Source: Perna viridis (Eukaryota). From it: a stretch of DNA of 64,000 bases. The notes beneath the pieces were generated by a model. The model did no database searches. It saw only the letters and a list, made by a program, of their open reading frames with translations, and was not told where the DNA came from. Numbering within the stretch: the first letter of the stretch is position 1; each line of letters opens with the position of its first letter. Positions 5,602-64,000 of the stretch are shown here, piece after piece. The translations under genes were made by a program, and so were the position numbers. Location of the stretch: NCBI GenBank assembly GCA_037379345.1, contig CM074523.1:30767678-30831677 (forward strand), read 5' to 3'.

Positions 5602-6085
5602 AAGATATTGGGCAGAGGTCAAAGATCAAGCTCCTTAGCAGCAATGTCAAGGTGGTTTTGTTGTATGGGGCAGAAACATGGCGAATAACAGTCAGAACAT
5701 TGGCGAAGATACAGGCATTTATTAACACCTGTCTAAGACCTATCCTCCTTAAACACTGGCCAGAAACTATCAGCAAATCAGACCTGTGGGAGATGACAAA
5801 TCAGCTACCTGCAGACCAAGAACTTATGCAGAGACGCTGGAGATGGATAGGTCAAACACTGCGGAAACCATCAACCAGTATAACAAGGCAAGCCCTGACC
5901 TGGAATCCCACAGGAAAACTAAAAAGGGGTAGATCCAGAAACACCTGGAAAAGGGACTTAGAGGCAGATATGAAAGGGATGGGGAACAACTGGACAGAAA
6001 TAGAAAGAGCAGCCCAGGACAGAGATGGCTGGAGAAGACTTGTTGGTGGACAATGCCCCCGTAGGTTTAACAGGCGAAAGTAAAG
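5602..6085 (+). mobile_element. 5'-truncated non-LTR retrotransposon (RTE-clade-like), ORF C-terminus with short-repeat tail
   Basis: [20 protein letters not shown]...[12 protein letters not shown]...[22 protein letters not shown]; AAGTA-type tail; direct repeats at 5554-5601 and 6086-6134. Confidence 0.88.
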
Positions 6086-34700: not shown

Positions 34701-37700
34701 CTGCCTGCCGACATTCGCCATTCTATAAAAAGATTTGGCACAACTGTAACCCAGCAAAAATTTATTCTGATTTCAAATCAAAATTTTTGTTTCATAGATT
34801 CCTGTTCAATTTCTGAATGATGAAAATAACCTACTTAAAAATAACAAGAGAATTTTATTTTTATCATTTTTAATTAGCCCATACCTAAGACTTCCATCTT
34901 AGCCTTTGAGTTGGCAGATCCCATGCGGTTCTTTGCCACACATTCAATGGTTGAATCTCCACCTTCTACTAAGTCCTTAATGATCAAACTGTGAACCCCA
35001 TTTTCACTCTTCATGGTGTAATGTCTGCTGGGAAAAATCTCACGGTAATTTCTGTACCTGTTAAGAGATGAGACATTTAGATGTTTCAATAAGAAATTAT
35101 TTTTGTATCACAAATTATGATACAGATAGATGTAGATTATTGAATGTTCCATGTAAAATAGGGACGGAGCATCTGCTATTCTCTGTCGAAACATTAATAA
35201 TTCAATTTCTTTCTGTTGGAACTGATATATTCATTTGAACTTTTATCACAGATACACATAATATGTTACCATTGGGTATATAACAACATTATGGTGCATT
35301 ATCAATAAAGTTATATGTAAAGCTCCGTCCCTTACAGACAAAACCTTGATGCATACTAAATTTTGATAATTCACATGTAAAAAAAATTCTGTATTTTCAT
35401 TCTCTGACACTATCCTGTCAAATTTTACAACTTTTTTCTCTTGTGATGTTAGAAAACTTTTATGTTGAAATATTTCCAAAAATATTTTTAGGACCTTGAA
35501 GTCTTAAGCAAATTTCGCAGATTTAAAGTTTAAAAGATATGCAAATATTAACTTGCTTGACCTAGGGTAAGGGACATAACTCTTGCAATCAGTGATATGC
35601 TTTAATCAATCCCAGATACTCTGATGCTTACATGAGATTGAAATAAAACGCTGAATACAAACGTTTCAATGATTTGAAAGAGTTGTGTCCCTTACCTTGG
35701 GTCTACCTCCTTAATTATAACAAACTTGATGAGGCCTGTTTGTTTATAATGTTAAATTTTTAATTGATATTTTGCTATATTCAACTTTCACTCATCATGT
35801 AATGAACATTTTAAATGGCTACCTAAAAAAAAATAAAAAATATCGTTTTAAGTATCTCATAAAGTATATCGCTTTAAACATACCATGTGACACTAGGTGT
35901 TGGCATTCCAGTTACTTCAGCTGTAAATTTAGCTTCTTGTCCTTCAATACCAATCAGGTCTTCAATCACTTTAGTGAATTTAGGTGCTTCCATTACTAGA
36001 ATAACAAGATGATAGATCAAAATATCATATTTTGAAGTAAGCTACAAAAAATTCTCATACACTAGAAATCACAATAATAAAAATCTTCTTAGTGTCACGT
36101 AACTCATCTGGGTTTCCCCCTTCAGAGAATTTCAAACTTGCTTCTTTTGTGATCCTTGTTTATTATTAATTTTTTAACAAACTGATATGTTTCTTCTTGA
36201 ATGAAGCTAGAAGAAAACATTACACTCACTTTTGTTTTGTTTCTGACTTGTTGGGTCTATTCAATTCATTTAATTTTGTTCCTTGATATAAAAAAGATGC
36301 ACACAGACTAAGGGACAGACTGACACTAAATAACTTCCACTTTGAAAGCAATGGGTATAGGGAAATTTTTTATAATGATTTTTCCTACCTTTTTGTTCTC
36401 TACAGTAGAATTGTTCAGTCTCAGGAGATGGTTCCCCGATACCCTCATCGTTCACTGCTCTGACACGGATACGATACGGTATATCTTCAAACAGGTTGTT
36501 GACCTTAAACTTTGTGTCAGAGATGGGTACTTTGTTGATTGGCATCCATGTGCGACCAGCCACATCCATGCGTTCAAGAATGTAACCAATGATTGGTGAA
36601 CCTCCATCGTGTTCTGGTGGCTGCCATGACAACTCAACAAATTTAGGACCAATTGCTTCTATTTCTGGTGCAAGTGGTGGGGCTCCTGGCTTGTCTGCAA
36701 TATTAGAGATCATTAAAGGTGACAGTTATTTATAAACACTGTACCAAAAACCACAAACAAACAAAACAACCTGAAGACTCAGTTTTATTTTGATGGTCTT
36801 AAGACTAATCACCAGAAACAAAGCTATATTTTCAATTATATGATTTTCATATAATTTAAAAAAAAAAATCAATTTTACTACAAAATCCTAAAACCTTGTA
36901 CTGTATACCTTTTCTGCCCTTAAGTTCAACTGGTTTCTTTAGTTCAGCAGGGCTACTCTGACCAGTAGAGTTCTCAGCAAAGACACGGAAATAGAATGTT
37001 CCTCCCTCCGGTAAATCACTCATGTGTTGACTCTTGACAAGTGGTGGTACCCTACATACTCTCTCCCAGTGCTCACTATCAGGTGTACGTCTCTCTATCA
37101 GGTAACCAGTCAGTCCTTTCTGACCTGAATCTGGAGCTTCCCAGGTCAAGGTCAAAGAGTCCTTAGTTACATCCTTCACCCTCAATGATGTTGGGGGTGA
37201 TGGCAATTCTGAAAATGAGAACAAGGAAACTTATTTTTTTGTTATTTAATAAATTGAAAAATGGAATTTCAATGCAAGTATTTGAAGTATAATCTTGTGA
37301 AGTACTTTTTAGCTTGAGAATATGAAAATTGCATTTCACATGTTTGTTCAGTTCCTTTGAAATAAATTAAAAAATGACAATGAACTATCTGTAAATTGAA
37401 GGTCATAATAATGCAATTATTGAAACAAAAACCCTTCTTTTCAACATCCATCAAGTTTATACTGGGTATAAGATAAATCATTGAAGATTTTCCTTTTAAG
37501 ATTTTTTCAAGTACGTTATCATTTTGTGTATGGTCCCTTTTCATTAGAATCAGATCTGATTTACTGTTTGTTTTTAACATCCTATGGCTGACATTTCATG
37601 CATATTAATAAGGAACATTTGATTAATCAAACAGACCCTACTCTGTATTACTTTGACTTAACCCTATGTAATGAAGCATGTAACCCCAAATCAGACACAT

Positions 37701-40700
37701 TATTCAAAGTTCAACCTAACCAGTTGTCACTTTATCTCTGATATCCCACATGTTTCTCAAGGATGCAATCACTACCAATTTTCTTTTACCCAGTTCAGGA
37801 TCATTATCAATATTGTACATACCCTGTACTTTCTTTGGAGCAACCGTTAGGTCCGACTCTAATGGTTTACTCCTGCCATAACGATTCTCAGCATACACTC
37901 TGAAAGCATAGTTCCTGCCCTCAGTCAATCCAGTCACGGTGAATTCATTCGCGGTACCACGAGTGGTAGTCACATGGAACCAACTGTGTCTGGTTCCCTC
38001 TTTCTTTTCAACGGTGTATGATGTTATTGGAGAGCCACCATCAGATACAGGAGGTTTCCAGTCTAAGGTCACACTGTCCTTGGTAAGAGGTTTGACCTTC
38101 AGAGGTCCTTGAGGTGGGCCAGGAGGTCCTATAGAAAACACAAGAATAAAAATTATTTCAAAGCAATAAATTAAAAATTTTAAGTACTTCACTGTCTAAG
38201 AATCAGGATAATGTGTATAAATTGTGGCACATGAAGGAAAAAACCCAGAAATTTTATTGCATTAACCTAGTATTTATACCTGATAACTTCCAGAAATAAC
38301 CATCAAAGTGTTTTTAAAATCTGCTTTTTTAAGATATTGATAGGTCAAATTTAGTTGAATGCACTATGGAGAAATGGTGGGGACATTTTCCTGCACTTTT
38401 TCCTTTTATAATCAGTCAAAAAAAATATCTATATCACAGATGCTTCAGCATAAATTTAAATAACTTTTCAGTTGTTTTCTAGATGTTTTGAATATACTTT
38501 AGGAAAAAGACCAAACTGAGAAATATGATGTGCCACCCATTGCCTGATTCTTACAAAGAATGGTACTTAAAGTAGCATACAGAAACATCAACAGCTTTAT
38601 CATTAAAAATTTCTAGCCATGGTACATGTGCTAAAAAAATAAATTAAGTGAAAACTTTTGTAAGAAGTAAGTAAAAGCAATAAAAATGTTCTGTAGTTTT
38701 CATGTAATGAGTTTTTCTAATGTAAAATATTGTAATTAAAATCTGTACAACAGACACCTGTAATTTGCTTTTTATATGTTAATATATTTATCCTTGTGAA
38801 CTTTTCCCATCTCAAAACATAAGGAGTGAAATGACATTTCATGAATGACAGATAATCAAACTAGGGAAATAAAGTTAGCATTACTCCTAATACATTTATA
38901 CATTTTTTTGTCCAATAATGCATAAAATAAACAAAATCTTCAACAAAGGGGTGGGGGTGGGGATGGAGGGATTGCAAACCTCAGATACTGCCAATGGCTC
39001 TTTGAAAGATAATCCAATACTTACCATATTTACTCTTAGGAGTAACAGCCTTGTCTGTTTCGAGAGCTGGACCAACACCAGCCTCATTTTCAGCCATGAC
39101 ACGGAAATAGTAGTCCTTATTTTCAATCAAATTGTCAACTTCAACAGACAATGTGTCTGGTGGTAACCTAGCAACACGGAGCCAGCGTGGACGCTGAGCT
39201 TCACTCTTTTCAACAATATAAGCAGTGATATTTGATCCGCCATCTTTTTCTGGTGGTTGCCATGACAACTTGACATGGTCCTCTGTGATGTCAGTTGCAT
39301 TGAGTGGAGCTTTTGGTTTGGATGGTTTTTCTACAAAATGAAAATATCAACATTCATTATTGAGAAAAAATTAGCTTGCATTTTCAAATTTATAAATCTA
39401 TGGCTTCAAAACAATAAAAACATACAGTTTTTCCAATTGTGAAAAACTTAAGGAGGTAGACCTAAGGGAAGGGACATAACTCTTGAAATCAGTGATATGT
39501 TTGTAACATATTCAACTTCACCAAGGCCTATCAAGCTTTCATTTGAAACAAAATGAAATCACTCCAAGTTACTTTGATGCTTATATGAGATTGATGTAAA
39601 ATGCTGACTACAAACGTTCCAATGATTTGTAAGAGTTGTGTTCCACACCTTAGGTTTACCTCCTTAAATCATCAAAGTTTTTATTTTCATGTAATTTAAT
39701 TTCAAGATCACTATATAGCTCTGATACAACAATGATGGAATTAGAAGATTATAACTTTTTAGCCTTGACTTAAAAAAAATAAACATAAGGCAGTGTGTTT
39801 TTGATGAATAGTTAATCATAAAATTACAGAACATCTGAATAAACTTTCTCATTATTTTGTTCACTTACCAATAACCTTCTTTGGCTGAATAACAGCCTTG
39901 ATTTCTGCAGGTTCACCAACACCGACAGAGTTCTTCGCCTTGACTCTGAATGTGTACTCATTGTCCGTTCTCAGATGTTTGGCAGAATATGTATGGACAG
40001 CTCCTGAAACATCCTTCATTTTGATAAAGTCGCCAAATTTACCATCCTTTACTTCAACAATATAGCCGGTTACTATGGCGCCACCGTCAGATTTTGGTTT
40101 CTTCCATCGGATGGTTATGGAGTCTTTGTCCATTGTCATTATCTCCAGATTTTCTGGTGGTGATGGTTTTTCTAGAATAGAATAGTCTGAATTTTGATAC
40201 AGTTTCACTAATGATGATGAAGAGAATATTTTCATGAAAAAGATGTCAGCAGTCATTAGAACTCAGTGAGTGCACAAAGGCAAAATTTTGCTTCAGAAAT
40301 AATTCTCTTCAATTTTCGTTGCATACTTTAAAAAGATAAATTTCAGCAATTAAAAAGAATGATGAGTGTTTCTATGTGTAAATTATCAAATTAGCAGGTC
40401 CTGTTTTTTGTGCTTATCTGTCCAATGTGAAAACAGCAAAAATTTATATGTTTACAGAATTCAATTAGTATTGAATATTCACCTTCCCTTTTGTAAGAAG
40501 TCACTACATGCAATTAAAACATAAAATTTCTGCCAAATACATAGTTATGTAACATTTTCATAATTATGGAAGATAAGTAAAAAAAAAACCAGTTGTTTTT
40601 ACCAAGTGGTCTTTGTGGCACTGCAGCTTTGTCTATGACAGCAGGTTCACTGAGTCCTTCAGCATTCTCAGCAAAGACACGGAAAATGTACCCACGTCCT

Positions 40701-43700
40701 TCTAACAAATTCTTTACTGTGTGCCATGTGACATCTGGTTCCACTCGAGTGACTCTGATCCATTGTGATCTACCTGGTTCCTTCCTTTCTACTGGGTACC
40801 CAATGATGGGAGTGCCACCATTAGATTCAGGGGGCGACCACTCTAGTGTGACACTATCTTCTGTGACATCAGTTACCTCAAGATCCTTTGGAATTGAAGG
40901 TACATCTAAAAAGGAAGAAAGTAAAACTACATGTATAATATAAATGTAAACTGGGAAATATTCATGTTCTTTATTTTCGCAGCCTTTACAATCAATCTAC
41001 TTTCATATTCAGTTTTCAATTTTCATTTGTTAGATTTCTGTGAAGAAATGCATGTATTTACAGTAATTTCTGTGTTAAAAGGTCTTATGTAAAGTACCAA
41101 AAAATAATTCAGCTGCAAAATTTCACAGTTTACAATATATAACCCTAAAAACATGGTGAGATAATTTCTGTTAAGTACAGCCCCAAAACCTTTTTTGTGC
41201 ACAATTAGACAGGAAATATAAAGTTTTAACTACAGTACTACAATACTTTGTTTTGCCGATTCTGTCTCTGTATATATTTCCTCCTTAAAATACCATGTTC
41301 CCATAAAGATTACCTTTTTCCCATTTATATGTATTGTGACAATTTAGAAATTATATGTACTGTGAAAAATGACATGCACATTGGATGGCCAACTTACCAA
41401 CAGCACTTTTAGCTGTAACAGGTTCTGGTAACTCAATTGGCTCACTAGCACCAAGCTTATTCTCAGCATAGACTCTGAAGTTGTATGCTCGTCCACGGGT
41501 CAAACCACCAACTTTGTAGTCAGTGACATCTGGTGTCAGACGAGTTGCTCTCATCCATCCACCAACCTTGGTGTCAAATTTCTCAATGATGTATCCTGTC
41601 AGAGGACTTCCGCCATCACATTCTGGTGGTTGCCATGACAGCGAGATGGAGTCCTTCTTGATGTCAAAGGCTTTCAATGGTCCTCTTGGTGCATCTGGTG
41701 TTTCTGTAAATAAAAATATTGATGTCAATAAAAATGAAATTAATAAGAAGCTGTAGTATTTTTCAGTAAAAAATCTTTTTGAAGGATAATATTTTAAAGT
41801 CATGGGCTTAGAATTTGAAATAAAACAATTAAGAAATTGATGGCTACAATCATTTAGCTATTCTAGTTAAAAAAAAATCAAATGAATCCCTAGTTGTCAA
41901 AATATGTGTAAAACAGTGAAATCTGACTTAACCACCAAGCTCTGAATAAATTGTAAACCTGTGTAAAGTCCTTTTGTGTAGCTATTTTAAGTAGCACTCC
42001 AGTTCAGAATCATGCAAAATGTGATTCATGGGTGAAAAGCCTACATATTTTTATTTTTGATATTTTGTTTAAATTGCCATAGTAAACAGAAATTAGCATT
42101 TGGTTTTTCATATAACCTGTGTTCTTAGGAGATAAAAATTATATAGAATGCACAGCCAAAATTAAGGGAGATAACTATCTAAATAACACTAAAATACAAT
42201 GGAATCTATTGGATTTTCAGTGTTGATTATCCACTAAGAGAAGACAGACTGGAATGCATAATTACACATTTCATAACATAGACCCATAAGACAACTTAAT
42301 TACACAAATAAAAATATGTAGCCTTTTTTCAGATTTTGCATGATTCTTACAAACACAGCTACTTAACTGTTTTACATGCCTACACCAAACATCGATTGTT
42401 GGGGTTTAACGTCCTCCTACACCAAACAAAATTGCCAAAACCAAACAAAATTGGTTCAATTTAGACAGGTTTTACTGTAGAACTTCTGATTTTAATTTCA
42501 ATACAAACCTAGTGGTCTCATTGGTTTGATAGATTTGTCAAGGTTTGTTGGGCGACCTTGACCTATTTCGTTGACAGCACTGATACGGAACATGTAATCA
42601 ACACCTTCGTCCAAGTCATCAATAGTTTTCTGATTGATCTTGGATGGAACAGTGGCAACCTCTTTCCATTCACCAGTTCTGCCATCCTTGGCCTCGATGA
42701 GGTATTTCTTGATTGGAGAACCTCCATCATCACTGGGAGGAGTCCATGTCAAGGTCACAGAGTTAGGTGTTATGTTACTGTCCTTGATCTTTCCTGGGCT
42801 GCCTGGTTTAACTGTAAATTGAGGAATTGTAAATTTTGATAACAAAATACAAAAAACATCCATTGCCTAACTATAAAACATTAATTTAAAAGATTGATCA
42901 GAGATTCCTTCAGATCATTGTCATGTACAAAATTACTTTTTTTTCAATATCCTGTACAATTTCCTGATTCCATGGTAAGAACAAGAGAAGGCATATCTAA
43001 TGCCATTTTTTTATCAATTATAACTATCTTTTAAGAATAATAATAATGATATTCATTAACTTCAGTTCCATAAAATATTTTTTCTTCTATAAAGTTACCT
43101 GGTGCCCTTCTAGGTGTAACTGGTTCAGATGTTTCTAAGGGTTGGCTCCTGCCTTCGTCATTCTCAGCAATTACACGGAACATGTAATCATTGCCCTCAG
43201 CCAATCTGTCGAGTGTGAGGGTGTGTGTATTGGGACGCGTTGTGTCAACCTGGTACCAATTGTTACGCTTCATATCACGCTGTTCTACAATGTAACGTTT
43301 AATTGGTTTACCACCATCATTTTTGGGTGGTTTCCAACCAAGTTCAGCCGATTTGGCAGTCACATTGGACACCTTGATTGGTCCTTCTGGGGTATCCGGT
43401 GAATCTAAAAATGGAAATATAAGTATAGAATGTAAAGATATTAATTTTTGCAGTGGACAGGTAAGCATGAAAATCAATTCCTGTAAAATTCATTTTTTAA
43501 CACTACAAAATGCTAATCCTATTTTGATACTGCAAAAAAGATATGCCAATATGTTTACATGACAGAATCTGTGAAAAATAGCCACCACATTAAAATTAAT
43601 ATGTTCACATTTATAAGAACAATACTGCGAATATGTATGTGTACAAATAATGGCAATAAGAATTAAGCTTAGCATTACTTCCAACATGAAAAAATCCAAG

Positions 43701-55700: not shown

Positions 55701-58700
55701 TGGTCAGCGGGGTGCCACCATCACTCTTTGGTGGTTTCCATGACAACACTGCAGTCTTTTCTGTGACATCAGATGCAAGCAGCGGTCCTTGTGGTGCAGA
55801 TGGTTTGTCTGAAATTTGAGAGAATTTTGTTTCTATAAAGTAGCCTCTTTTAAAAGTAGAAAAAACATGTACCTCTGCCAATAGTATAGGTAATCATAGT
55901 ATGATTTCAATGTTAAAAAAATAAATAAATATAAGAAAAAATCAGGTATCTCCAGTGATACGGGAAGGTCAATTATCATTTTACAGGTTTTTTTTGCTTT
56001 TTAAGACAGATGAAAAAAAATTAAATTGCAGAGGATTCATCAGTACTCAAGATTAAAATTGTCTGTATAATTTTACTACACTATCTTACCATAAGGACTC
56101 TTGGCCTTGTATTTATTTTCAGACTCCAATGGTTTACTAGGTCCAACTTTGTTTTCTGCTGTTACTCTATATATGTATTCTTTGTTCTCTGTCAACTTCT
56201 CCGCCAAACAGGAAGTGACATCAGGTCCTACCTTAGCAACAGGAGTCCACATATTCCTGTTTGCTTCACGTTTCTCAATAGTGTAGCCAGTGACAGGTGA
56301 GCCTCCATCTGATTTAGGTGGTTGCCATGACAATGACATTGATTCCTTTTGAATGTTCTTGACCTCAAGTGGTCCTTCAGGCATTTCTGGAGCAGATTTT
56401 GCTTTTTCAATCTTTATTTCCTCAGATGTCAGAGGTTTGCTAGGTCCAGCTTTGTTGACAGCAGTTACACGGAATGTATATTGCTTTCCATCTTGTAAGT
56501 CCTTGACCTTGAAACTGTTTGTAAATTTGTCAACTTTCCCAAGAGGGATCCATTTTTCTCCATCAGTGGAGGACTCAATGATGTACTCAGTGATGGGTGA
56601 TCCACCATCTTGGTCAGGTGACTTCCATGAGAGATCACATGACTTGGGTGTGATGTTTGATACCTTGAGAGGTCCTCTTGGTATATCTGGTACAGCTGAA
56701 AAAAAAGTAAATATTTCAAATAATATCAGAAAAGAAGATTTATTTATATATTTTCATACTGTAGGTTTGCCAAAATTTTATTCCTGGAATTTTTAAATTT
56801 TGTATTTAAAATTCACAATTTGGACTTTGTGTCATTATTTTACTTTTTAGTTTAATTTGAAGCAGGCATGATTTTATGAGGTCTACAAACAAAGTGGAAA
56901 TTAGCAAAATCAGAATTAAATATACAGTAAAAAAAGAATCATAATGGTAAAATCAGGATTTGAAATAGCAGAATTTTGCTAAAACGGAAAAAAAATCATG
57001 TCTGTTGAAGAAGTGTCATTGTTGTGACCATGGATTTTATTACTTATGTTGTCTGTGCCTTTCAGGGCCTTCCTTAAGGAGGTAGAACTAGGATAAGGGA
57101 CATAACTCATGAAATCAGTGATATGTTTGTATCATATTCAATTTCACCAAAGCCTCTCAAGCTTTTGTTTGAAGCAGAATAAAATGAATCCAAGTTAATT
57201 AGATGCTTACATAAGATTGATGTAAAATGCTGAATACAAACATTCCAATAATTTGACAAAGAGTTGTGTCCCTTACTCTAGGTCTACCTCCTTAAAGGTG
57301 TAAGGGGAGGATTGTCGTGGTTTTTTTTTATATTCATTGTTATTCATTTTAGGGTTTTTTTTCCTATAGATAAGGTTGATTTTCATCTTTTATGAATAGT
57401 TTCACTTCATTTATTTTGGGCCTTTTACAGTTTTATGGTAAGGGTTTTACCCATCATTAAAGACCATGTGGTTGGATGACTGTCTCATTGGCAATCATAC
57501 CACATCTATTTTTTTATATTGAGTAGTATATGTTCTTAAAAGAGTTGCAATTATGCATGTTCGTATCAAAGTCTGATGTAAAACTTACCAATTTCTTTCT
57601 GTGGTTTGACCTTGTCCTTGCCTTGAAGTGGTGAACTTTGACCTTCTTTGTTAACAGCAATGACCTGGAACTGATACTCTGTACCAACAGCCAGATCCCT
57701 AGCTGTGAACTCATTGTCAGTGGGTTTGACATCTCCAACCTTTCTCCATGTTGATTTTCTGGTATCCCTGGCCTCAATGATGTAACCGGTCAATGGAAGG
57801 CCTCCATCACTCTTTGGTGGTTTCCATGACAACTTTGCAGATTTGTCAGTAACATCTGTGATTTCAAGTGGACCTTCTGGTGAAGATGGTTTGTCTAAAA
57901 GTATAAATTACACAAAGCCATCAGATCACTCAGTATTAAATATGTAATGAATGGTCTGTTTTTTTTCTTTTATTTGTCCTGTTGACCCTCCCACATTAAG
58001 GGGGACTACCAAAAAAACAGAAATAAAGAATCTACCACATAAAAATGTAAGACCTATGGGAGATTTTTGGTAAAAATTACAATATTTTTTATTAAAAATT
58101 CTATTGAACTTTTACAGAAAAAATTTTTTAAAATGCTTTAATGTAAAAATCTCCCACAGGAGACACTTGTCAATGGAGAGAATTGTTCCAAAGGTTAAGA
58201 GGAATGCATTGACATATGACTATTTTATTTTCTATATCGTACTTTGTTGAATATCAATCAGTAGTATTACTGAAAGGAAATCAATCAAACAAAACAACTA
58301 ATGGAATTTCTCTATTTCTTAGTAGCAAACTCACCATAAGGACTCTTGGCTGTATGAGCCTTGTCTGTTTCCAGTGGTTTACTGGATCCTTTTTTGTTCT
58401 CAGCTACAACTCTGAACAGGTAGTCCTTTCCATCCAGGAGTTTGTCTGCCACACAGGAAGTGACATCACCATTTAGTCTCTGTACTGGTGTCCACATGTT
58501 CCTGTTGGGTTCACGTTTCTCAACAGTATAACCTGTAATTGGTGAGCCTCCATCTGATTTAGGTGGTTGCCATGACAATGACATTGAGTCTTTTTGAATG
58601 TCCTTGACTTCTAGTGGTCCTTCAGGCATGTCAGGAGCAGTTGGTTCTTTCCCAACCTTAACGGTGTCAGAGGTCAAAGGTTTACTTGGTCCAACCTTGT

Positions 58701-61700
58701 TGACTGCAATAACCCTGAAGGTATACTGTTTGTCTTCTTCAAGTTCTTTGACATGGAAAGTATTGCTGAATTTGTCGACTTTTCCGAGAAGGATCCATTC
58801 TTCTCCATCAGTGGAGGACTCAATGATATACTCAATGACTGGTGATCCACCATCTTTGTCAGGTGACTTCCAAGAGAGGTCACATGATTTGGGTGATAGA
58901 TTTGACACTTTGAGTGGACCTTTAGGCGTGTTTGGAATAGCTTTAAGTATAGAAAAAAATTATTCGATACATTTTTATTCAAATTACACATATTTCAACA
59001 AAATTATAATTTAAAGAAAAAAAAACTGATAAATTCATTATTAGCATAACCAAGGGTTGGGAATGAAATTTTAAGAAGGGCCCATTTCAGGTTTATTTCA
59101 AAGATATTCAAAATTTAATAGCTATTTTTTAACGAAACATATAGATTTCTTTTATGTGAAGGAGCCATTTCCTTGCAAAAGGCCTATAGCCCCTTGCCTT
59201 CCCAACTCCTGAGCATAACATATTGTAAACATTACTTTGCAGTACTGAAATTCTTAATAAAGAAAAAAGAAAAATACACTTTTGTCCTACAGAAAATAAA
59301 GGACTTTCCCCCTATATAATGGTATTTAAAGTACAAGAATGAAAAACAAAAGTGATGTTCATTGCATTAAGATCAATATTATTCAAAGAAATTTTTCAAA
59401 GCAACTGAGATGGAAGGATCAAAAGGTAGACAAACAGTGGTTACCAAAACAAGAGGTGTAAAAATTACTCTCCCTAAATTTATAAATTTCTACTCACTGG
59501 CTTGTTTGACAGGCCTGACTGGTTCTTTGGACTCCAGAGCAGGACTGCTTCCCTCCTCATTCTCAGCCAGTACACGGAAGTTGTATGTGTTTCCTTCAAA
59601 CATATTATTCACTTTGAATGATGTGGTATCTGGCAAGATCTTGTCCAGTTTTGTCCAGTTCGGACGTTTGTCTTCACGTCTTTCTATGATGTACCCAGTT
59701 AGAGGCTTACCTCCATCTGATTTTGGTGGTTTCCATGACAACACTGCAGACTTGTCAGTTACATCTGAGATGTCAAGTGGTCCTTCTGGTGCACTTGGTT
59801 TGTCTAAAGAGAAATAAACCTGAAGTTGCACACACTGTATACCCTCATTTGTACAGGAAGTCAATACAGTAAAACCTCTCTACACCGAACCCCTTTCTGA
59901 CTGTAGAATTTGGTCAGTTTGGACAGGTGTACATTTTATCCAGATTCAAAATACATTTAAATTGACACAATGGAACTTCAAAACTTGCCTGGTTTAGGCA
60001 GGTTTTGGATTAATTCAGGGTTCGGTTTAGACAGGTTTTCGATTAATTAAGGGTTTGGTTTAGACAGGTTTTCAGTTAATTCAGGGTTTGTGTTTAGACA
60101 GGCTCTTGGTTAATTCAGGGTTCAGTTTAGACAGGTTCTCGGTTAATTCAGGGTTCAGTTTAGACAGGCCACACTGTATTTGACAGCAACAAAAACCAAA
60201 AGCTACATATCACTGGCAGCCCAAATAATTGTGATAAAAAATCAACAGATTGACAGAATGACACACTGAATGAATGAAAAACAGAAAAGACAAAGTTGAG
60301 GTAGTGTATAATAATTCATGAAACAAACTAAAACATTAACTTTGCTTTTTGAAGTTAATTTTACAGTTTGTCTGCTTGTTCTTTTTCTTTTTTTTTTTTT
60401 TTTAGATCTGACAATAAATTCACAGAATTCACTATTAGTTTTATTTAACTCACCAAATTCATCCTAATGTACATTAAAGTTACCAAATTCATTCTCAGGT
60501 ACATTAAACTCACCAAATTCTCTCTTAGGTACAATTAACTCACCAAATTCTCTCTAAGGTACATTAAACTCACCAAATTTGTTCTTAAGTACAATAAACT
60601 CACTAAATTCACTACTGAGTACAATTATCTCACCAAATTCACTACTGAGTACAATTATCTCACCAAATTTATTTTTAAGTACAATTAACTCACCAAATTC
60701 ACTCTTGGGTACAATAGCCTTGTCAGTATCCAGGAAGTCAGATCTTCCAATGGCATTCTCTGCACAGACACGGAAGTAGTAATCTTTTCCTTCTTTCAGT
60801 TTCTCAACTGTCAGTTTACATGTCTCTCCATCAGTTTTACCAGCAGGTACGTATTTGGCTCTGGCACTGTCTCTGCTTTCTACAATGTAGGCAGTGATAG
60901 GTGATCCGCCATCTTTGGGACTTGGTTTCCATGACAATGTGACTCTATCTTTGGAGATGCTTGTGGCCTCAAGTGGTGCCTCTGGTTTGGCTGGTTTTTC
61001 TAGGGAGACAAATTTAATGGTGTTGAAAATGCAACTTTAAAAGACAATTGCCCCTACTTGGAAAATGAATTCATGCTTTTTTAAAGATTTGTTAAAATTT
61101 TTGATCGCATATCCTAAGAATAAAATAGCATGCATTCATTTAAATTATCTTAGAAAAATGGTAACCATGAGAAGAAAGGGGGCTGAAATAAAATGTGTTG
61201 TCCCTTTTAAAATTCTGCTGAAAGGCCTTGTATTTCTTAACTACAACTTTTTAATGAGATCAACAGCTTGTCCAGCCAAACTTTTCATCAAAGAACTGAA
61301 CTGGACTTTTATCATTTTATTTCAAATCTAATTCTTTACACATGTATTTGACCTACCTTTTGGTTTGCTAGGTTTAACAGAAGATTCTGTCTCAATCTGT
61401 TTACCAACACCAGCTTCGTTCTCAGCAGCCACAGCAAAGAAATAGTCCACTCCCTCCTCTAGATTCTTCACCTTGTAGTGATTATCAAAGCTCTTGACCT
61501 TGGTGACCTCTGTCCAGTCATCTGGTTGACCTTTGGCCATTCTGATGTGATAGGCTGTGACCTTTGAGTTGCCATCTGATTTGGGTTTGCCCCATTCAAG
61601 TTCAGCAAAGTCTGGACCAGTTTTGTTGACCTTGATGTAGCTTGGTGCTCCTGGTGGTACTGGAAATGAATATTCATACATTACTTTCATGAATATTCAT

Positions 61701-64000
61701 GAACAAAATTATATTTGATAACTCATTTATCAATTTCAGTTATTTAAATTCTAAATAGTTTTTCAGCCAGGTTGCTTTAAAAGTGCATATCATTAAGCAT
61801 AGCAATGATAAACATTCATTAATTAAGAAAAGATGTATGTTTGTTTGAATTTGATCACACTTACTAATTTTCTTGGAAGGTTTGACCTTCTGTTTTGTCT
61901 CAAGTGGTGAACTTTGACCTTCTTTGTTGACAGCAATGACTTGGAATACATATTCATTTCCAAGGGCAAGATCAGGTACAGTGAACTCAGTGATATCTCC
62001 TGGTACTTCTCCCACCTTTTTGAACATTGACCTTCTAGTGTCACGACCTTCAATGATGTATTTGGTCAGTGGAGTGCCTCCATCACTCTTTGGTGGTTTC
62101 CATGACAAAAGGGCAGATTTCTCTGTAATGTCAGAAACCTCGAGTGGTCCTTCTGGTGCAGATGGTTTATCTGTTAAAGAAAGAGTATAACTTATAAATT
62201 GTTATTATAAATAAGTTTTTCCTTCTGTAACATGCACTGGTTTTCACAATTTTGTCATTTTTAGAAATAGTTATAATCACAAGTGCCAAAGAACACCTTA
62301 TTATGGGCACAAGTTAAATCTTTTATATGTTCTTGGCATTAGTGATCATATTTTGGTTATTCACAACAATCTATTGATAATATAGATAATTTGTTGTTAT
62401 TTTCGACATAAATTTTCAATTTTGTGAACGGCAGTTTATTTTTGTGATATGGAAAGAATTCATGCTTCAGCATTGTTACAGATATCAGACGAGCACTAAG
62501 AATTGCAAATCAAATGAATGTCATATTTTTTTGACAATGTTTAGGCATTATTTATAAATATGAAAATGTTTAAAACTTGTACAATGTTCCATGAGAATTC
62601 TACCAGAGATACTGCAAAAACTGACATATGAAAATATGTTAACCTGATACAGTCCACGAAAAATTAGCAAATGTGAAAATGGAAAATAATGTGAAAGTAC
62701 TTTAATTTGTGAATACCAATTTTCGTGGTTTGTGATGATACACAAGTTCGTGAATTCGTGGTTTTGAGGTTTTCAGTATACACATCAATGGAAATCTCCT
62801 TTTGGTTGGTAACCAAGTTTCATGGTTTTGCCTGCCCATGAAAACCGTGAAAATTGGTATCCCAGGAACAATAATACTTTTACAGTAGGTCTACAGTAGT
62901 TTCTACACCTACCATAAGGACTCTTAGCCTTGTAAGATTGTTCAGATTCCAGAGGTTTACTCTGGCCATGTTTATTCTCAGCAATTACTCTATAGATGTA
63001 GTCCTTTCCTTCTATTAGCTTGTCAGCAACACAGGAAGTGACATCACCTTTGACCTTTTGAACTGGTGTCCACAGATTTCTTGATGGTTCACGTTTTTCA
63101 ATGACATAATTAGTAATTGGTGATCCTCCATCTGATTTTGGTGATTGCCAGGACAATGTCATTGAGTCTTTGTTGATGTCCTTGACCTCTAAAGGTCCTT
63201 CTGGTTTTTCAGGGGCAGATGGGCCTTTCTCGGCCTTGATGGAGTCTGAGGTCAGAGGTTTACTTGGGCCAACCTTATTCACGGCAGACACACGGAAGGT
63301 ATATTTCTTTCCTTCCTCCATGTCCTTGACCTTGTATGTGTTACTAAATTTATCAACTGTTCCAAGTGGAACCCAAGTCTCTCCATCTGCGGATGCCTCT
63401 ATCAGAAACTCTGAAATAGGTGCACCACCATCTTGGTCAGGTGACTTCCATGTGAGGTCACATGATTGTGGTGTGATATTCGAGATTTTGAGTGGTCCTC
63501 TTGGTGATTCTGGTACAGCTGATAAGTACAAAATCATACAATGATTGATTAATTATGATTTACCATCTTTTTTTCAGGTACCTTTGACTTGAAAGTTTAA
63601 TCAATTGAGTAAATAACTATCAAATTTGAATCTCCATTACCTTTGATTACAGTCAACAGACAAAACAAAAGCATGGCATCTTTAGTGAATTATAAATATA
63701 GTAATCAGTATGAAAGAAAGACTGAAATAAACATCATTATTTACTGAAACTTTTGCTTAAAGATCACACATAAATTGTATTTAAATTTCTCATAACTGTT
63801 CTTCTAAAAATCCCTTTATAAGAATTTAAATGTATTTTGAACCTAGTTAAACTGCCACCTGTCTTTACAGTTCAAAAGAGGTTTAGTTAGGCCAGGTTTC
63901 ACTGTAATAAAAAATTACCTGTTGGTTTAGTTGGTTTAATGGTCTCCATGGTTTCCAGTCCAGGACTGGTTCCTTCAGCATTCTCAGCCAAGACTCTGTA
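16671..64000 (-). CDS. Giant titin/twitchin-family muscle protein kinase gene, 3' portion (66 exons; >=36 FN3, Ig-Ig-FN3, kinase, 9 Ig + 1 partial Ig); 5' end outside window
   Basis: Exons bounded by GT/AG with compatible phases; FN3 motif W.PP..DGG..I..Y.....Y.FRV.A.N..G; I-set Ig motifs; kinase motifs GRGAFG, AAK, HLDLKPEN, DFG, APE. Confidence 0.95.
17248..17386 (-). CDS. Ig9 C-part
   Basis: DFQISTIG...EIFPEDEGRFMCKAVNEKG; phase 0-1. Confidence 0.92.
17634..17781 (-). CDS. Ig9 N-part
   Basis: QPKFTKKLAD...LECEVQGQPRPQITWYREG; phase 2-0. Confidence 0.9.
17960..17987 (-). CDS. 28-bp linker microexon
   Basis: DKSMEATPS; phase 1-2 required by next exon. Confidence 0.78.
18258..18417 (-). 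CDS. Ig8 C-part
   Basis: LPKSDK...DAGLYTCKA; phase 0-1. Confidence 0.92.
18711..18840 (-). CDS. Ig8 N-part (alternative acceptor possible at 18900)
   Basis: KFPPKFVVEL...KVWWEKDGKE; phase 2-0. Confidence 0.85.
19419..19467 (-). CDS. 49-bp linker microexon
   Basis: EKSELVSLSTDKPGKQK; phase 1-2 required; donor GTAAGT. Confidence 0.78.
19982..20017 (-). CDS. 36-bp acidic symmetric microexon
   Basis: APEDVDDDDLSY; TTTTAG/GTAGGC; phase 1-1. Confidence 0.68.
20580..20720 (-). CDS. Ig7 C-part
   Basis: DHVEIFYEDG...DKGTYKCVASN. Confidence 0.92.
21293..21694 (-). CDS. Truncated Ig, M/P-rich linker and Ig7 N-part
   Basis: APFFIKHLP...DCYVEG / IPMMSIPPMMGG / SPRFVEGLED...IQWFKDG. Confidence 0.88.
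22230..22408. mobile_element. GC-ended palindromic MITE (CAG.GG..GATCCAG...CTGGATCC.CC.CTG)
   Basis: Inverted ends; related copies at 6-166 and 10928-11061. Confidence 0.62.
23045..23082 (-). CDS. 38-bp linker microexon
   Basis: EEVPTDEALKAA; phase 2-1 needed to restore frame; donor GTGAGT. Confidence 0.82.
23600..23798 (-). CDS. Ig6 C-part
   Basis: TWHKG...DSGEYTARASNALG; phase 1-2. Confidence 0.9.
24073..24297 (-). CDS. S/P-rich linker plus Ig6 N-part
   Basis: ARSKSKSPPSTPTFSEEEEF...PPHFTLTLP...CSVEGYPKPY. Confidence 0.9.
24476..24651 (-). CDS. Ig5 C-part
   Basis: QKDG...DSGLYTCIAQN; phase 2-1. Confidence 0.92.
25043..25184 (-). CDS. Ig5 N-part
   Basis: RPEFVEPLHD...FSCKAVGKPMPSFRW; phase 1-2. 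Confidence 0.9.
25529..25652 (-). CDS. Ig4 C-part
   Basis: NKYGLLSLEI...DMGTFTCKAVN; phase 0-1. Confidence 0.92.
25859..26127 (-). CDS. Linker plus Ig4 N-part
   Basis: ASKEDETDS...PNFTAKL...GIPNPKITWYRDG; phase 1-0. Confidence 0.9.
26354..26653 (-). CDS. Post-kinase Ig3
   Basis: PPKFIKGLED...GFPEPEIEWYK...DSGRYMCRAVN. Confidence 0.92.
26861..27064 (-). CDS. Post-kinase Ig2, C-part
   Basis: TCRPEPEVTWYHNG...DAGQWQCEAVN. Confidence 0.92.
27343..27461 (-). CDS. Post-kinase Ig2, N-part
   Basis: HAKHDYD...PPAFTLPLIDQVKRVGETLELTVT; phase 2-1. Confidence 0.9.
27938..28236. repeat. 27-bp minisatellite, ~11 copies, intronic
   Basis: ttggttcccttgattactcttttgttg unit. Confidence 0.95.
28293..28350 (-). 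CDS. 58-bp basic linker exon
   Basis: ERKHRRRRKKLADEAMAKLQ; phase 1-2 is required to join the flanking exons. Confidence 0.82.
28655..28945 (-). CDS. Post-kinase Ig1
   Basis: MPPHAPVVQEPLED...GKPSPKITWY...DAGKYRCKAVN. Confidence 0.92.
29138..29329. mobile_element. MITE family A, truncated copy
   Basis: ttaacgaggtagacctagggtaaggg; second TIR missing. Confidence 0.72.
29654..29837 (-). CDS. Kinase C-terminal regulatory (autoinhibitory/CaM-binding-like) tail
   Basis: KKLSKLHHKDYRDKHRHKEDDLDLLPIGKISRDSAIFRK, like the twitchin tail IGRI..S.LRK; phase 0-1. Confidence 0.82.
30573..30611 (-). CDS. 39-bp symmetric microexon after kinase
   Basis: TTTTTTAG|CCCAGA...CCAAGA|GTAAGT; PREPNDDTKTLPR; phase 0-0 fits neighbours. 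Confidence 0.65.
31444..31642 (-). CDS. Kinase exon 5
   Basis: LSGYSPFAGENDLDTFANI...DAKDFIKKL...RMTIDEALAHPWLN. Confidence 0.95.
32095..32294 (-). CDS. Kinase exon 4
   Basis: PENVMF...KIIDFGLA...FGTAEFCAPE...DMWALGV. Confidence 0.95.
32461..32602 (-). CDS. Kinase exon 3
   Basis: LSGGELFDRL...YMRQICEGVRHMHRSNILHLDLK. Confidence 0.95.
32917..33117 (-). CDS. Kinase exon 2
   Basis: GAFGVVHR...WAAKFI...HEIDIMNDLHHPKLLQLHEAF. Confidence 0.95.
33277..33367 (-). CDS. Kinase exon 1 (linker, subdomain I start)
   Basis: YDASFRGDNVNPDRIKGDVLGKYIICEEIGR; phase 1-2. Confidence 0.88.
33558..33881 (-). CDS. Pre-kinase FN3 plus start of N-terminal linker
   Basis: DRPGPPEEKP...WKEPEDNGG...DVDYDSM. Confidence 0.92.
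34076..34366 (-). CDS. Pre-kinase Ig B
   Basis: PPKIVEVPPRYLDGLY...KPEAKVTW...YKINVENRLGSDSLSIPIRVI; phase 1-1. Confidence 0.9.
34885..35057 (-). CDS. Pre-kinase Ig A, C-terminal half
   Basis: YRNYREIF...ECVAKNRMGSANSKAKMEVL; phase 2-1. Confidence 0.9.
35559..35714. mobile_element. MITE family A, internally deleted copy
   Basis: gacctagggtaagggacataac...gtctacctccttaa. Confidence 0.75.
35884..35995 (-). CDS. Pre-kinase Ig A, N-terminal half
   Basis: MEAPKFTKVIEDLIGIEGQEAKFTAEVTGMPTPSVTW; phase 1-2. Confidence 0.88.
36389..36694 (-). CDS. FN3 exon, 306 bp (last of the run)
   Basis: DKPGAPPLAP...CREQK; AG/GT. Confidence 0.92.
36909..37208 (-). CDS. FN3 exon, 300 bp
   Basis: ELPSPPTSL...LKGRK; AG/GT. 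Confidence 0.92.
37823..38128 (-). CDS. FN3 exon, 306 bp (class 6)
   Basis: GPPGPPQGPL...PKKVQ; AG/GT. Confidence 0.92.
38180..38570. mobile_element. TTAA-flanked MITE related to families B/C
   Basis: ttaagtac...aagaatcagg / cctgattctt...gtacttaa inverted ends. Confidence 0.65.
39025..39330 (-). CDS. FN3 exon, 306 bp (class 5)
   Basis: EKPSKPKAPL...PKSKY; AG/GT. Confidence 0.92.
39448..39667. mobile_element. ~213-bp TTAA-flanked MITE, family A (TIR GGAGGTAGACCTA.GGTAAGGGACA; Kolobok-like termini)
   Basis: ~30-bp TIRs, TTAA on both sides, 7 copies in window. Confidence 0.85.
39869..40171 (-). CDS. FN3 exon, 303 bp (class 4)
   Basis: EKPSPPENL...PKKVI; AG/GT. Confidence 0.92.
40603..40905 (-). 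CDS. FN3 exon, 303 bp (class 3)
   Basis: DVPSIPKDL...PQRPL; AG/GT. Confidence 0.92.
41398..41703 (-). CDS. FN3 exon, 306 bp (class 2)
   Basis: ETPDAPRGPL...AKSAV; AG/GT. Confidence 0.92.
41987..42366. mobile_element. MITE family B copy (inverted), apparently nested in a CAGT-type MITE
   Basis: ttaagtagcactccag...cagctacttaa. Confidence 0.85.
42509..42811 (-). CDS. FN3 exon, 303 bp (class 1)
   Basis: KPGSPGKIK...PMRPL; donor GTTTGT. Confidence 0.9.
43099..43404 (-). CDS. FN3 exon, 306 bp (class 6)
   Basis: SPDTPEGPI...PRRAP; AG/GT. Confidence 0.92.
43888..44193 (-). CDS. FN3 exon, 306 bp (class 5)
   Basis: PPSPPVGPL...IPKSPY; AG/GT. Confidence 0.92.
44324..44862. mobile_element. MITE-like element (TAAGGCCA...TGGCCTTA) with its left end amplified as a 51-bp array (~7 copies, 44324-44667)
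   Basis: 51-bp period; the inverted right end ggcctgagaa...ttggccttag matches the unit; related single-copy element at 22791-22981. Confidence 0.8.
44954..45259 (-). CDS. FN3 exon, 306 bp (class 4)
   Basis: APGPPNNLKV...PKQPI; AG/GT. Confidence 0.92.
45755..46060 (-). CDS. FN3 exon, 306 bp (class 3)
   Basis: DKPSAPEGPL...PKKKL; AG/GT. Confidence 0.92.
46505..46810 (-). CDS. FN3 exon, 306 bp (class 2)
   Basis: GPPSAPTHPF...MKSPF; donor GTTAGC. Confidence 0.9.
47562..47861 (-). CDS. FN3 exon, 300 bp (class 1)
   Basis: APEIPIGPI...PTKPT; AG/GT. Confidence 0.9.
48175..48477 (-). CDS. FN3 exon, 303 bp (class 6)
   Basis: VPSPPKNFGV...VKEA; AG/GT. Confidence 0.92.
48628..48823. mobile_element. 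TA-flanked MITE (CTGTGAAAGTA...TACTTTCACAG type)
   Basis: Inverted ends; related copies at ~62687-62887 and ~4340-4454. Confidence 0.68.
49259..49564 (-). CDS. FN3 exon, 306 bp (class 5)
   Basis: VPSAPVGPL...AKSPY; AG/GT. Confidence 0.92.
49938..50240 (-). CDS. FN3 exon, 303 bp (class 4)
   Basis: APSPPQNVKV...VEKPK; AG/GT. Confidence 0.92.
50620..50925 (-). CDS. FN3 exon, 306 bp (class 3)
   Basis: DKPSAPQGPL...PTKKL; AG/GT. Confidence 0.92.
51178..51399. mobile_element. MITE family A, full copy in opposite orientation
   Basis: ttaaggaggtagacc...ggtctacatccttaa. Confidence 0.85.
51427..51732 (-). CDS. FN3 exon, 306 bp (class 2)
   Basis: GKPSKPVGPL...IKSPY; AG/GT. Confidence 0.92.
51909..52208 (-). 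CDS. FN3 exon, 300 bp (class 1)
   Basis: PPSAPVGPV...PKKPA; AG/GT. Confidence 0.9.
52557..52862 (-). CDS. FN3 exon, 306 bp (class 6)
   Basis: AVPSAPEGPM...VCRDA; donor GTGCTT. Confidence 0.88.
53117..53509. mobile_element. ~390-bp TTAA-flanked MITE, family B (GTAGC...GCTAC)
   Basis: Colinear with 54316-54719 and, inverted, with 41987-42366. Confidence 0.85.
53838..54143 (-). CDS. FN3 exon, 306 bp (class 5)
   Basis: KPAAPEGPL...TPKSPT; AG/GT. Confidence 0.92.
54316..54719. mobile_element. MITE family B copy
   Basis: ttaaatagctgtc...ggagtgctacttaa. Confidence 0.85.
54847..55149 (-). CDS. FN3 exon, 303 bp (class 4)
   Basis: KPSAPTGLKI...PMKPK; AG/GT. Confidence 0.92.
55503..55808 (-). CDS. 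FN3 exon, 306 bp (class 3)
   Basis: DKPSAPQGPL...PTKEI; AG/GT. Confidence 0.92.
56090..56695 (-). CDS. Double-FN3 exon, 606 bp (class 1+2)
   Basis: AVPDIPRGPL...KAKSPY; AG/GT. Confidence 0.92.
57074..57295. mobile_element. MITE family A, full copy
   Basis: ttaaggaggtag...ctacctccttaa. Confidence 0.85.
57589..57894 (-). CDS. FN3 exon, 306 bp (class 3)
   Basis: DKPSSPEGPL...PQKEI; AG/GT. Confidence 0.92.
58335..58940 (-). CDS. Double-FN3 exon, 606 bp (class 1+2)
   Basis: AIPNTPKGPL...AKSPY; AAG acceptor, GTGAGT donor. Confidence 0.9.
59498..59803 (-). CDS. FN3 exon, 306 bp (class 6)
   Basis: DKPSAPEGPL...VKQA; AG/GT. Confidence 0.92.
59865..60178. mobile_element. TA-flanked MITE (CAGT...ACTG) with its right end amplified as a 33-bp array (~5.5 copies, 59991-60168)
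   Basis: Left tacagtaaaacctctctacaccgaaccc is the inverted complement of the right end gggttcagtttagacagg..cactgta. Confidence 0.82.
60445..60715. repeat. 30-bp tandem array (9 copies) of an exon 3' end plus splice donor
   Basis: caccaaattc.....gtacaattaact every 30 bp from 60451 to 60691. Confidence 0.95.
60694..60999 (-). CDS. FN3 exon, 306 bp (class 5)
   Basis: KPAKPEAPL...VPKSEF; first of several tandem donors gives the canonical 306-bp length. Confidence 0.9.
61357..61659 (-). CDS. FN3 exon, 303 bp (class 4)
   Basis: PPGAPSYIKV...KPSKPK; AG/GT. Confidence 0.92.
61865..62170 (-). CDS. FN3 exon, 306 bp (class 3)
   Basis: DKPSAPEGPL...KPSKKI; AG/GT, phase 1-1. Confidence 0.92.
62687..62887. 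mobile_element. Same family as 48628-48823
   Basis: tgtgaaagtac...ataccaattttcgtgg...aaattggtatcc...tacttttacagta. Confidence 0.62.
62913..63518 (-). CDS. Double-FN3 exon, 606 bp (class 1+2)
   Basis: AVPESPRGPL...KAKSPY; AG/GT, phase 1-1. Confidence 0.92.
63919..64000 (-). CDS. FN3 exon, partial at window edge (class 6)
   Basis: YRVLAENAEGTSPGLETMETIKPTKPT; donor GTAATT. Confidence 0.85.

Follow-up and report, generated by a model that had tools for sequence, protein, structure and literature searches.

A connectin/titin gene of the mollusc Perna viridis contains a run of 46 FN3 domains (F01–F46) that is expressed, has no Ig and follows a strict period of three, and this run is probably a multivalent anchor at the tip of the thick filament. 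The period of three is real and robust, and it is conserved across gastropods and bivalves. The anchor function is a likely prediction for the run that draws on homology, since Sallimus (Sls) and TTN-1 are reported to reach the edge of the thick filament.

The window, which is the whole stretch of 64,000 nucleotides that was analysed (C13:30767678–30831677), encodes 35 of these domains on its minus strand in 32 phase-1 AG/GT exons between 36389 and 63518, and three of the 32 exons hold two FN3 domains each. The sequence-only reading had counted 36 FN3 domains, which agrees with the 35 complete domains and the last 82 nt of the exon of a 36th at the window edge. When the run was followed upstream in adjoining stretches beyond the window, ten further domains were found ahead of the window portion (F11–F46), and no Ig domain is present in the full run. 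The joined exons of the 46 domains give an open, stop-free frame of 4664 aa, and every exon of the run is of phase 1-1. RNA reads from four runs in two studies cover 44100–64000 and are stranded to the minus strand, which demonstrates that the run is expressed. At least 15 of the 23 introns predicted in 44100–64000 were spliced, and the joints listed in Table 1 (15 of 92) are all consecutive predicted GT-AG exon joints; the RNA evidence is confined to this interval.

The positions of the repeat were named A for the domain with the KSPY tail, then B and then C. It had been claimed from the sequence that every third domain ends in such a tail, and this was borne out, as KSPY, KSEF, KSPT, KSPF, KSAV or KSKY is present on 11/11 every-third domains of the window; over F01–F44, a tail of KS followed by P, E, A or K is carried by 15/15 every-third domains and by 0/29 others. 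The identity between domains is 43, 45 and 46% at lags of 3, 6 and 9, respectively, against ∼37% at other lags, and the z value of 14.4 for period 3 was not reached in any of 2000 shuffles. Clustering of the domains by position mod 3, which had been predicted, was also found in a tree, with 3 label changes against 21.1 for shuffled labels (0/200). The triplet is 302–306 aa in length here and mostly 299–309 aa in relatives. Furthermore, the charge of the C–C′ loop in mollusc domains is +1.0 for A (n = 87), +1.2 for B (n = 88) and −1.15 for C (n = 79), and this pattern of basic A and B with acidic C was found in 5/5 molluscs tallied and, in a weaker form, in Owenia and rotifers.

Table 1. Features of the run and of the downstream part of the gene in the order of transcription; positions are those of the window unless stated otherwise.
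Feature	Position	Strand	Remarks
F01–F10	75993 down to 64652 (extended window coordinates)	−	Upstream; come after Ig-Ig pair
F11 exon 3′ end (82 nt)	63919–64000	−	Type B; full exon 64224–63919, extends past window
F12	63219–63518	−	Type C (subtype 1); 5′ half of intron-less C+A double exon
F13 (A, KSPY), F14 (B), F15 (C, subtype 4)	61357–63218	−	Recent duplicate block; F13/14 and F14/15 joints in RNA
F16 (A, KSEF), F17 (B), F18 (C, subtype 1)	58641–60999	−	F18 shares double exon with F19; F15/16 joint in RNA
F19 (A, KSPY), F20 (B), F21 (C, subtype 1)	56396–58640	−	F21+F22 double exon; extra triplet breaks six-period; F19/20 joint in RNA
F22 (A, KSPY), F23 (B), F24 (C, subtype 4)	54847–56395	−	66–75% identity to F13–F15; F23/24 joint in RNA
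F25 (A, KSPT), F26 (B), F27 (C, subtype 1)	51909–54143	−	F24/25 joint in RNA
F28 (A, KSPY), F29 (B), F30 (C, subtype 4)	49938–51732	−	F27/28 and F28/29 joints in RNA
F31 (A, KSPY), F32 (B), F33 (C, subtype 1)	47562–49564	−	F30/31, F31/32 and F32/33 joints in RNA
F34 (A, KSPF), F35 (B), F36 (C, subtype 4)	44954–46810	−	F33/34, F34/35, F35/36 and F36/37 joints in RNA
F37 (A, KSPY), F38 (B), F39 (C, no subtype assigned)	42509–44193	−	Exon calls and tree
F40 (A, KSAV), F41 (B), F42 (C, no subtype assigned)	39869–41703	−	Exon calls and tree
F43 (A, KSKY), F44 (B)	37823–39330	−	Periodic part ends here
F45–F46	36389–37208	−	Two terminal FN3, outside period
Ig-Ig-FN3 before kinase	33592–35987	−	Domain calls
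Titin-family Ser/Thr kinase, four exon blocks	31444–33122	−	Motifs AAK, HLDLKPEN, DFG
Nine Ig domains at the C-terminus, several of them encoded by two exons	17246–28928	−	Domain calls

The gene that carries the run extends over more than 230 kb and is assigned, on its layout and kinase, to the mollusc connectin/titins of the Sallimus/TTN-1 group. It comprises Ig exons, which begin at least as far out as C13:31,022,000, then PEVK-rich exons, further Ig, a block of tandem Ig and FFF-II-FFF-II-F46-II-F-kinase-Ig9 (F, FN3; I, Ig), and the protein is estimated to exceed 20,000 residues, provided that every exon is used. Six open frames of 584–3929 aa contain 39–57% PEVK, and long PEVK-type segments together with tandem Ig are the mark of a non-chordate connectin. 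Membership of the titin/connectin family is also indicated by Ig domains alongside FN3 domains with the motifs PxPP, PxxDGG and AxNxxG, as described for intracellular titin FN3 (PMC10665226, excerpts), and by the C-terminal Ig-Ig-FN3-kinase order. The best PDB matches of the FN3 domains of the run are from the titin A-band, and database entries name the homologues 'titin' or 'titin-like'.

The kinase in the window is 74% identical to that of the FN3-run protein of Elysia (P0378) and 58% identical to the twitchin kinase of the same genome. In a quick kinase tree, computed without TTN-1 and without oyster Cg_CON, it was placed with Elysia P0378 (SH-aLRT 99) and outside the twitchins, including that of its own genome on contig C8. 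At its start, the kinase agrees with oyster Cg_CON_A1 at 50/55 positions, counted by eye (supplement of Hanashima, 2025; PMC12198301, excerpts); in the same source, non-chordate I-connectin, D-titin as well as Ce-titin are placed apart from projectin/twitchin. One kinase was found in the Perna viridis gene, whereas the oyster Cg_CON entry has two. The run gene resembles twitchin/projectin, which has an Ig-FN3-FN3 repeat, in its titin-family kinase after Ig-Ig-FN3 and in the KSPY domain, which is of the first-after-Ig type (see below). However, the twitchin of the same genome is a separate gene on C8, with 15 FN3 in IFF/IFFF units and the layout of oyster twitchin, and its kinase, which is 86% identical to the oyster twitchin kinase, belongs to a different clade from that of the run gene. 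A twitchin identity of the run gene was rejected on these grounds and for the lack of Ig within the run. With respect to the synteny with SESTD1/CCDC141 (zormin) that would be expected upstream, the nearest spectrin-repeat match on C13 is located at 31.96 Mb, on the opposite strand and at a distance of 0.9 Mb, in a search that divergent repeats could escape.

The PEVK-rich exons and tandem Ig are shared with Sallimus/I-connectin and TTN-1, including oyster Cg_CON (XP_034304307.1), which the start of the kinase also resembles by eye. A further likeness to Sallimus, a terminal FN3 cluster that comes after an Ig pair, is seen via Nezara P0099, which contains SH3 by Pfam and ends in F-II-FFFF. Among 103 pairs, the Ig pair of P0099 is matched best by the one that precedes the run in molluscs (top 2), and the four FN3 domains with which P0099 ends are of the first type, as in the run; P0099 is probably the Sallimus orthologue, judging from its SH3/Ig/five-FN3 layout. 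In Drosophila, Sls carries five FN domains at its C-terminus, and its Ig51-Fn2 epitope is located where the myosin filament starts (PMC9886281, excerpts). TTN-1 is reported to extend as far as the A-band edge, where it forms a bridge, and to bind myosin via C-terminal Ig domains (PMC9886278, excerpts, citing Forbes, 2010). By homology, the run would correspond to the FN3 cluster at the C-terminus of insect Sallimus, expanded approximately tenfold. The terminal cluster differs in that it has 46 domains here against 4 in Nezara, has a period of three, and is preceded by FFF-II units and followed by Ig-Ig-FN3-kinase.

Relatives were obtained from homologue and representative protein searches, in which the proteins did not exceed ∼7,600 aa, so that full-length bivalve and cephalopod orthologues were absent from the results. 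Ig-free runs of 41 domains in Plakobranchus, 43 in Pinctada, 36 in Elysia (with gaps), 39 in Haliotis (truncated) and 40 in Bulinus (partial) were found in molluscs, and runs of 14 in Owenia, 14 in rotifers, 13 in Helobdella, 14 in Lingula (partial) and 12 in Macrostomum outside them; among the spiralians retrieved, runs of ∼40 domains occur only in molluscs, and the longest annelid and rotifer runs have 13–14. The II-FFF-II-run layout is common to Plakobranchus, Pinctada, Elysia, Haliotis, Owenia, rotifers and Helobdella. The z value for period 3 is 5.3–16.3 in 6/6 molluscs (Perna viridis included), 3.6 in Owenia and 2.3–3.9 in two rotifers; the period does not reach significance in Lingula, in Helobdella, in Macrostomum and in two of four further runs, or in the Lottia run of 10 domains, from which exons are apparently missing. 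A leave-one-species-out classifier, trained on four molluscs and tested on the fifth with tails excluded and five domains of less than 92 aa dropped, gave the correct position mod 3 for 198/200 mollusc domains, a result that is helped by orthologous training domains. The same classifier was correct for 75/106 domains of non-mollusc runs, and the A/B/C classes were not recovered by it in Nezara, Helobdella and Macrostomum. Anchored run lengths of 44, 41, 41 and 14 are all of the form 3n+2, the exceptions being 13 (Helobdella), 12 (Macrostomum), 4 (Nezara) and the Elysia model, in which 7 domains are missing. The mod-3 offsets of between-species domain alignments are partly circular, because the same similarity defines the classes, and alignments to Owenia failed.

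FN3 domains were also classified as the first, middle or last FN3 of Ig-flanked units by a classifier that was calibrated across families to an accuracy of 0.71–0.73; on held-out domains, it called 439/512 true first domains, 52/512 true last domains and 0/225 true middle domains first. A was classed as the first-after-Ig type in 84/87 cases and B in 87/88, and C was classed as first in 57/79 and last in 22/79, and carries the acidic loop of the last type. The proposal of the sequence-only reading that an FN3 occupies the Ig position of the twitchin triplet fails in the register C-A-B = Ig-FN1-FN2, because B should then be last-type but is classed first-type. The other register, with A (the KSPY domain) in the Ig slot, may apply, and is partly in line with the last-type calls (22/79) and the acidic loop of C. 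An origin of the triplet from titin A-B-C with loss of the Ig is unsupported, as 0/88 B domains were classed as middle type.

Long Ig-free FN3 runs, of 15–40 domains in the retrieved fragments, also occur in ambulacrarian titin-like proteins (Patiria P0122, Saccoglossus P0001, P0123, P0131 and P0148, and Diadema P0002). In contrast to the mollusc run, these runs, which come from sea star, sea urchin and acorn worm, lack a period of three (z of −0.3 to 1.2), which indicates that an Ig-free run does not need the period, and they are built from middle-type domains (108/142), which suggests that they are probably a separate expansion, useful here as a control.

As an anchor, the run would extend alongside the myosin/paramyosin thick filament at its tip, with the PEVK and tandem-Ig part serving as the I-band spring. 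The basic C–C′ loops of A and B may contact the acidic rods of myosin or paramyosin, and the loop of C is acidic; with this charge pattern, each triplet would form one binding unit of ∼12–13 nm, and duplications would survive when whole triplet units are added. Within proteins, 121/121 domain pairs at 60% identity or more are at offsets divisible by 3 and 48/121 at offsets divisible by 6, these pairs being non-independent and read as roughly six events, which occurred at differing positions along the run. Since all exons are of phase 1-1, a duplicated unit of any size would keep the frame, and the register of the 121 recent pairs therefore weighs against the main alternative, in which unequal crossing-over multiplied an ancestral block of three exons into a generic sticky or spacer chain whose period has no role. 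The tails and loop charges specific to each class, which have been kept across bivalves and gastropods, lineages that split more than 500 My ago, also weigh against this alternative, which is possible but considerably less probable than the anchor. It is consistent with the lineage-specific expansions at differing places, with the copying together of three intron-less C+A exons, with the aperiodic, middle-type ambulacrarian runs and with the view that the titin FN3 types, being alike in fold and arraying, may be evolutionary remnants (Fleming, 2023; PMC10665226, excerpts). An existing period might itself bias crossing-over towards in-register events.

The sequence-only reading had nested the triplet in a six-domain super-repeat, of which a part remains. 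On the tree, the domains group by their six labels (9 changes against 22.6 for shuffled labels), and the exon lengths fit the six proposed classes with 4 exceptions among 34, the 606-nt double exons being assigned as 300+306 by assumption; however, the six-period is not significant over the whole run and is broken twice. Much of the clustering is supplied by F11–F25, which are near-copies of 64–76% identity at offsets of 9, 6 and 3, and with this recent block three intron-less C+A exons were copied along. Within F26–F44, classes 2 and 5 are inseparable (42.6% identity within and 45.3% between classes), and the nearest neighbour is of the same six-class for 9/19 domains and of the same position mod 3 for 14/19. 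Alternation at the triplet level was equalled in 4016/5000 shuffles for F12–F44 and in 4113/5000 for F01–F42, and is thus not significant; it appears only in the sub-range F21–F44 (84/5000 shuffles), which was one of five ranges tried. Position C has two subtypes (support 89/76 and 94/80) in the order 1,4,4,1,4,1,1,4,1,4,1,4,?,?, with two breaks in the alternation. A strict six-period was rejected for the whole run here and for 4/4 other molluscs in the triplet-level test (Plakobranchus, Pinctada, Haliotis and Bulinus; 2757–4529 of 5000 shuffles as high); the other molluscs grew their runs by pure triplets, and the last 18 domains of two gastropods alternate marginally (404 and 492 of 5000 shuffles). 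Because of the breaks, the lack of significance and the classes that are inseparable outside the duplicates, the six-period is read as a vestige of past duplications, accompanied by some alternation in the half towards the C-terminus, and as no conserved ruler period, the hexamer being incidental.

The triplet had further been read as a thick-filament ruler of 14.5 nm. A periodic thick-filament-binding segment in a titin-family protein is a plausible part of that reading; the twitchin triplet and the 14.5 nm rise are unsupported, and three domains are estimated at ∼12–13 nm from residue counts and the published titin pitch. Titin domains are ∼42 Å in length when straight and 39 Å on the filament, with 11 domains per 430 Å and 7 for two crowns in the D-zone (PMC12694897, excerpts), and the 11-domain unit spans ∼43 nm (PMC10665226, excerpts). 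This unit has 1080–1097 aa (18 units measured), or ∼361 aa per crown, and 304/1082 × 43 nm gives ∼12.1 nm per triplet, the titin pitch giving 11.7–12.6 nm. The junctions of the run are of full length in 45/45 cases, with 43–44 residues between the Asn of the FG hairpin and the Trp of the following strand B, compared with 40–43 in titin, and an upper estimate that allows for slightly longer junctions would be ∼13.5 nm. The range of 12–15 nm expected for a ruler would include nearly any three Ig/FN3 domains.

A crown-matching ruler, with a repeat equal to a whole number of myosin crowns, is unlikely. In the form proposed from the sequence, one triplet equals one 14.5 nm myosin/paramyosin crown and an FN3 replaces the twitchin Ig in a filament ruler; the strict and conserved period, the full-length junctions, the invertebrate crown spacing of 145 Å (PMC10573858, excerpts) and the 14.5 nm repeat of paramyosin cores, which have a period of 72.5 nm (PMC12040844, excerpts), fit this form, but it is highly unlikely. 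It would need 4.8 nm per domain, against 3.9–4.2 nm in titin, and its triplet has 302–306 aa against ∼361 aa per crown; moreover, the domain after KSPY is of the first and not the last type (87/88), and the gene is not twitchin. The whole run is estimated at ∼180–200 nm and would therefore be too short to set filament length, ∼190 nm being far below half a thick filament. Mollusc thick filaments are equal to or much longer than those of vertebrates. The vertebrate thick filament measures 1.6 µm as a whole (PMC10665226, excerpts). It is likewise very improbable that the run reads the paramyosin core by a match of six triplets of ∼12.1 nm to the 72.5 nm period (304/1082 × 43 nm, times six; PMC12040844, excerpts): this would suit the confinement of ∼40-domain runs to molluscs among the spiralians retrieved, with an annelid and rotifer maximum of 13–14, but the arithmetic uses an estimate that is uncertain by ∼1 nm, the run amounts to 14 2/3 triplets, and paramyosin sits in the filament core beneath myosin.

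The run has the FN3 subfamily and the position-specific classes in common with the A-band super-repeats of vertebrate titin (7- and 11-domain, types A/B/C), as well as similar linkers (SPY/SPF here, NPF in titin), an array that grew through duplications in its middle and basic/basic/acidic loops, the titin triplet having loop charges of +0.2/+1.3/−1.1. In contrast to the titin A-band, its repeat contains no Ig and consists mostly of first-type domains, its unit is 304 aa against ∼361 aa per crown, and it would extend over ∼190 nm and not over a whole half filament. Positional super-repeats of the titin family are well known, and the principle is therefore not new; the run is a variant of them that was not found described before, and its triplet is robust and conserved. 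No description of the mollusc FN3 run or its period was found in the literature searched, the scope of which excluded most subscription journals, including older work on invertebrate connectin, and a term search of the main text of PMC12198301, figures aside, likewise returned no description of the run.

In recent papers on bivalve muscle, twitchin is the titin-family thick-filament protein, and the linking and templating of the contractile apparatus are left open (PMC12040844 and PMC13762225, excerpts). The run gene is a concrete candidate for thick-filament tethering in paramyosin-rich muscle; far larger than twitchin, it is expressed and has a conserved periodic segment at the place that corresponds to the contact of insect Sallimus with myosin, and it offers a defined unit in the form of the triplet, a surface that is predicted to be charged and natural length variants (14, 41 and 44). 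A more far-reaching reading, which is rather unlikely, is that in a mollusc titin of more than 20,000 residues the Ig-free triplet would be a third thick-filament template, beside the 7/11-domain template of titin and the three-domain template of twitchin, that reads the lattice of the paramyosin core with six triplets per 72.5 nm and in which lineage-specific expansions by triplets tune the extent to which the elastic filament overlaps the tip of the thick filament. If true, it would be an unrecognised link in the striated and catch muscle of molluscs.

AlphaFold2 modelled the F12–F13 double exon, without an alignment, as two FN3 folds (pLDDT 72.9, pTM 0.44) joined by a linker of low confidence, and the top Foldseek match of this model was titin A84–A86, with a TM of only 0.42. 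A search between F44 and F45 for a Sallimus-like terminal exon gave no match, whether the stretch was translated, searched with tblastn or compared with a profile built from 11 tails. In several spiralian gene models, a short tail ends the protein after the domain equivalent to F44.

As modelled, the end of the connectin gene after the periodic FN3 run differs among relatives. In Bulinus, Owenia, rotifers, leech and Nezara (proteins P0121, P0380, P0381, P0196, P0175 and P0099), the gene models contain only 53-101 amino acids after the last periodic domain, a short tail that in Nezara and Bulinus looks like the latter half of an FN3 domain, and continuation past the run into Ig-Ig(-FN3-kinase) is found in Elysia, Lingula and the Perna viridis gene. 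The gene may have alternative kinase-less and kinase-bearing ends. No exon matching such short tails was found in the intron between F44, the last periodic domain, and F45 (window 37823-37209) by translation, tblastn or a profile of 11 tails; read-through past the F44 donor would give a 35-amino-acid open tail. Only one kinase was found in this part of the Perna viridis gene and the 20 kb beyond the window (window 17246-33122 and L015-L016), whereas the oyster connectin entry has two, A1 and A2 (Hanashima 2025; PMC12198301).

In Owenia, one further relative and Lineus (P0380, P0381 and P0206), the II-FFF unit of five domains, repeated up to ten times in the same gene, is what has expanded in place of the FN3 run, and the copies apparently alternate in subtype. 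The twitchin gene of Perna viridis lies on a separate contig (see the table); its kinase is 86% identical to that of oyster twitchin, and its FN3 domains are mostly split across two exons, whereas those of the connectin run are one-exon domains. Runs of six FN3 domains are also present in annelid-type twitchins (P0459 of Helobdella and P0454). These look like two FFF units joined through loss of an Ig, seemingly a separate route to Ig-free runs, unlike that of the connectin run.

Features in and around the connectin gene, and the twitchin gene
Feature	Location	Strand	Remarks
Twitchin gene	C8:2771597-2865849 (L017-L026)		Ig at the N terminus; IFF/IFFF units with 15 FN3; kinase
Single open frames of 2685, 3498 and 3929 aa	C13:30,911,504-30,970,307 (L008-L014)		E/K/P/V/T-rich tandem repeats
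Intronic tandem repeats	window 44365-44717		unit ~50 nt
Intronic tandem repeats	window 27737-28272		unit ~33 nt
Intronic RNA read pile-ups	window 51177-51211, 53116-53500, 54330-54700, 57080-57296, 45336-45660	both	heavy, many differences, loose ends
Open frame	window 5523-6080	+	Pfam: weak DUF6451 match only
Open frame	around C13:30,835,554-30,836,282 (L001)		inside F06-F07 intron

The long repetitive open frames are putative elastic exons. The intronic tandem repeats give rise to spurious open frames, and the stretches with read pile-ups are likely to be dispersed repeats or pieces of transposons whose transcription takes place elsewhere. The last two open frames in the table resemble remnants of retroelement reverse transcriptases.
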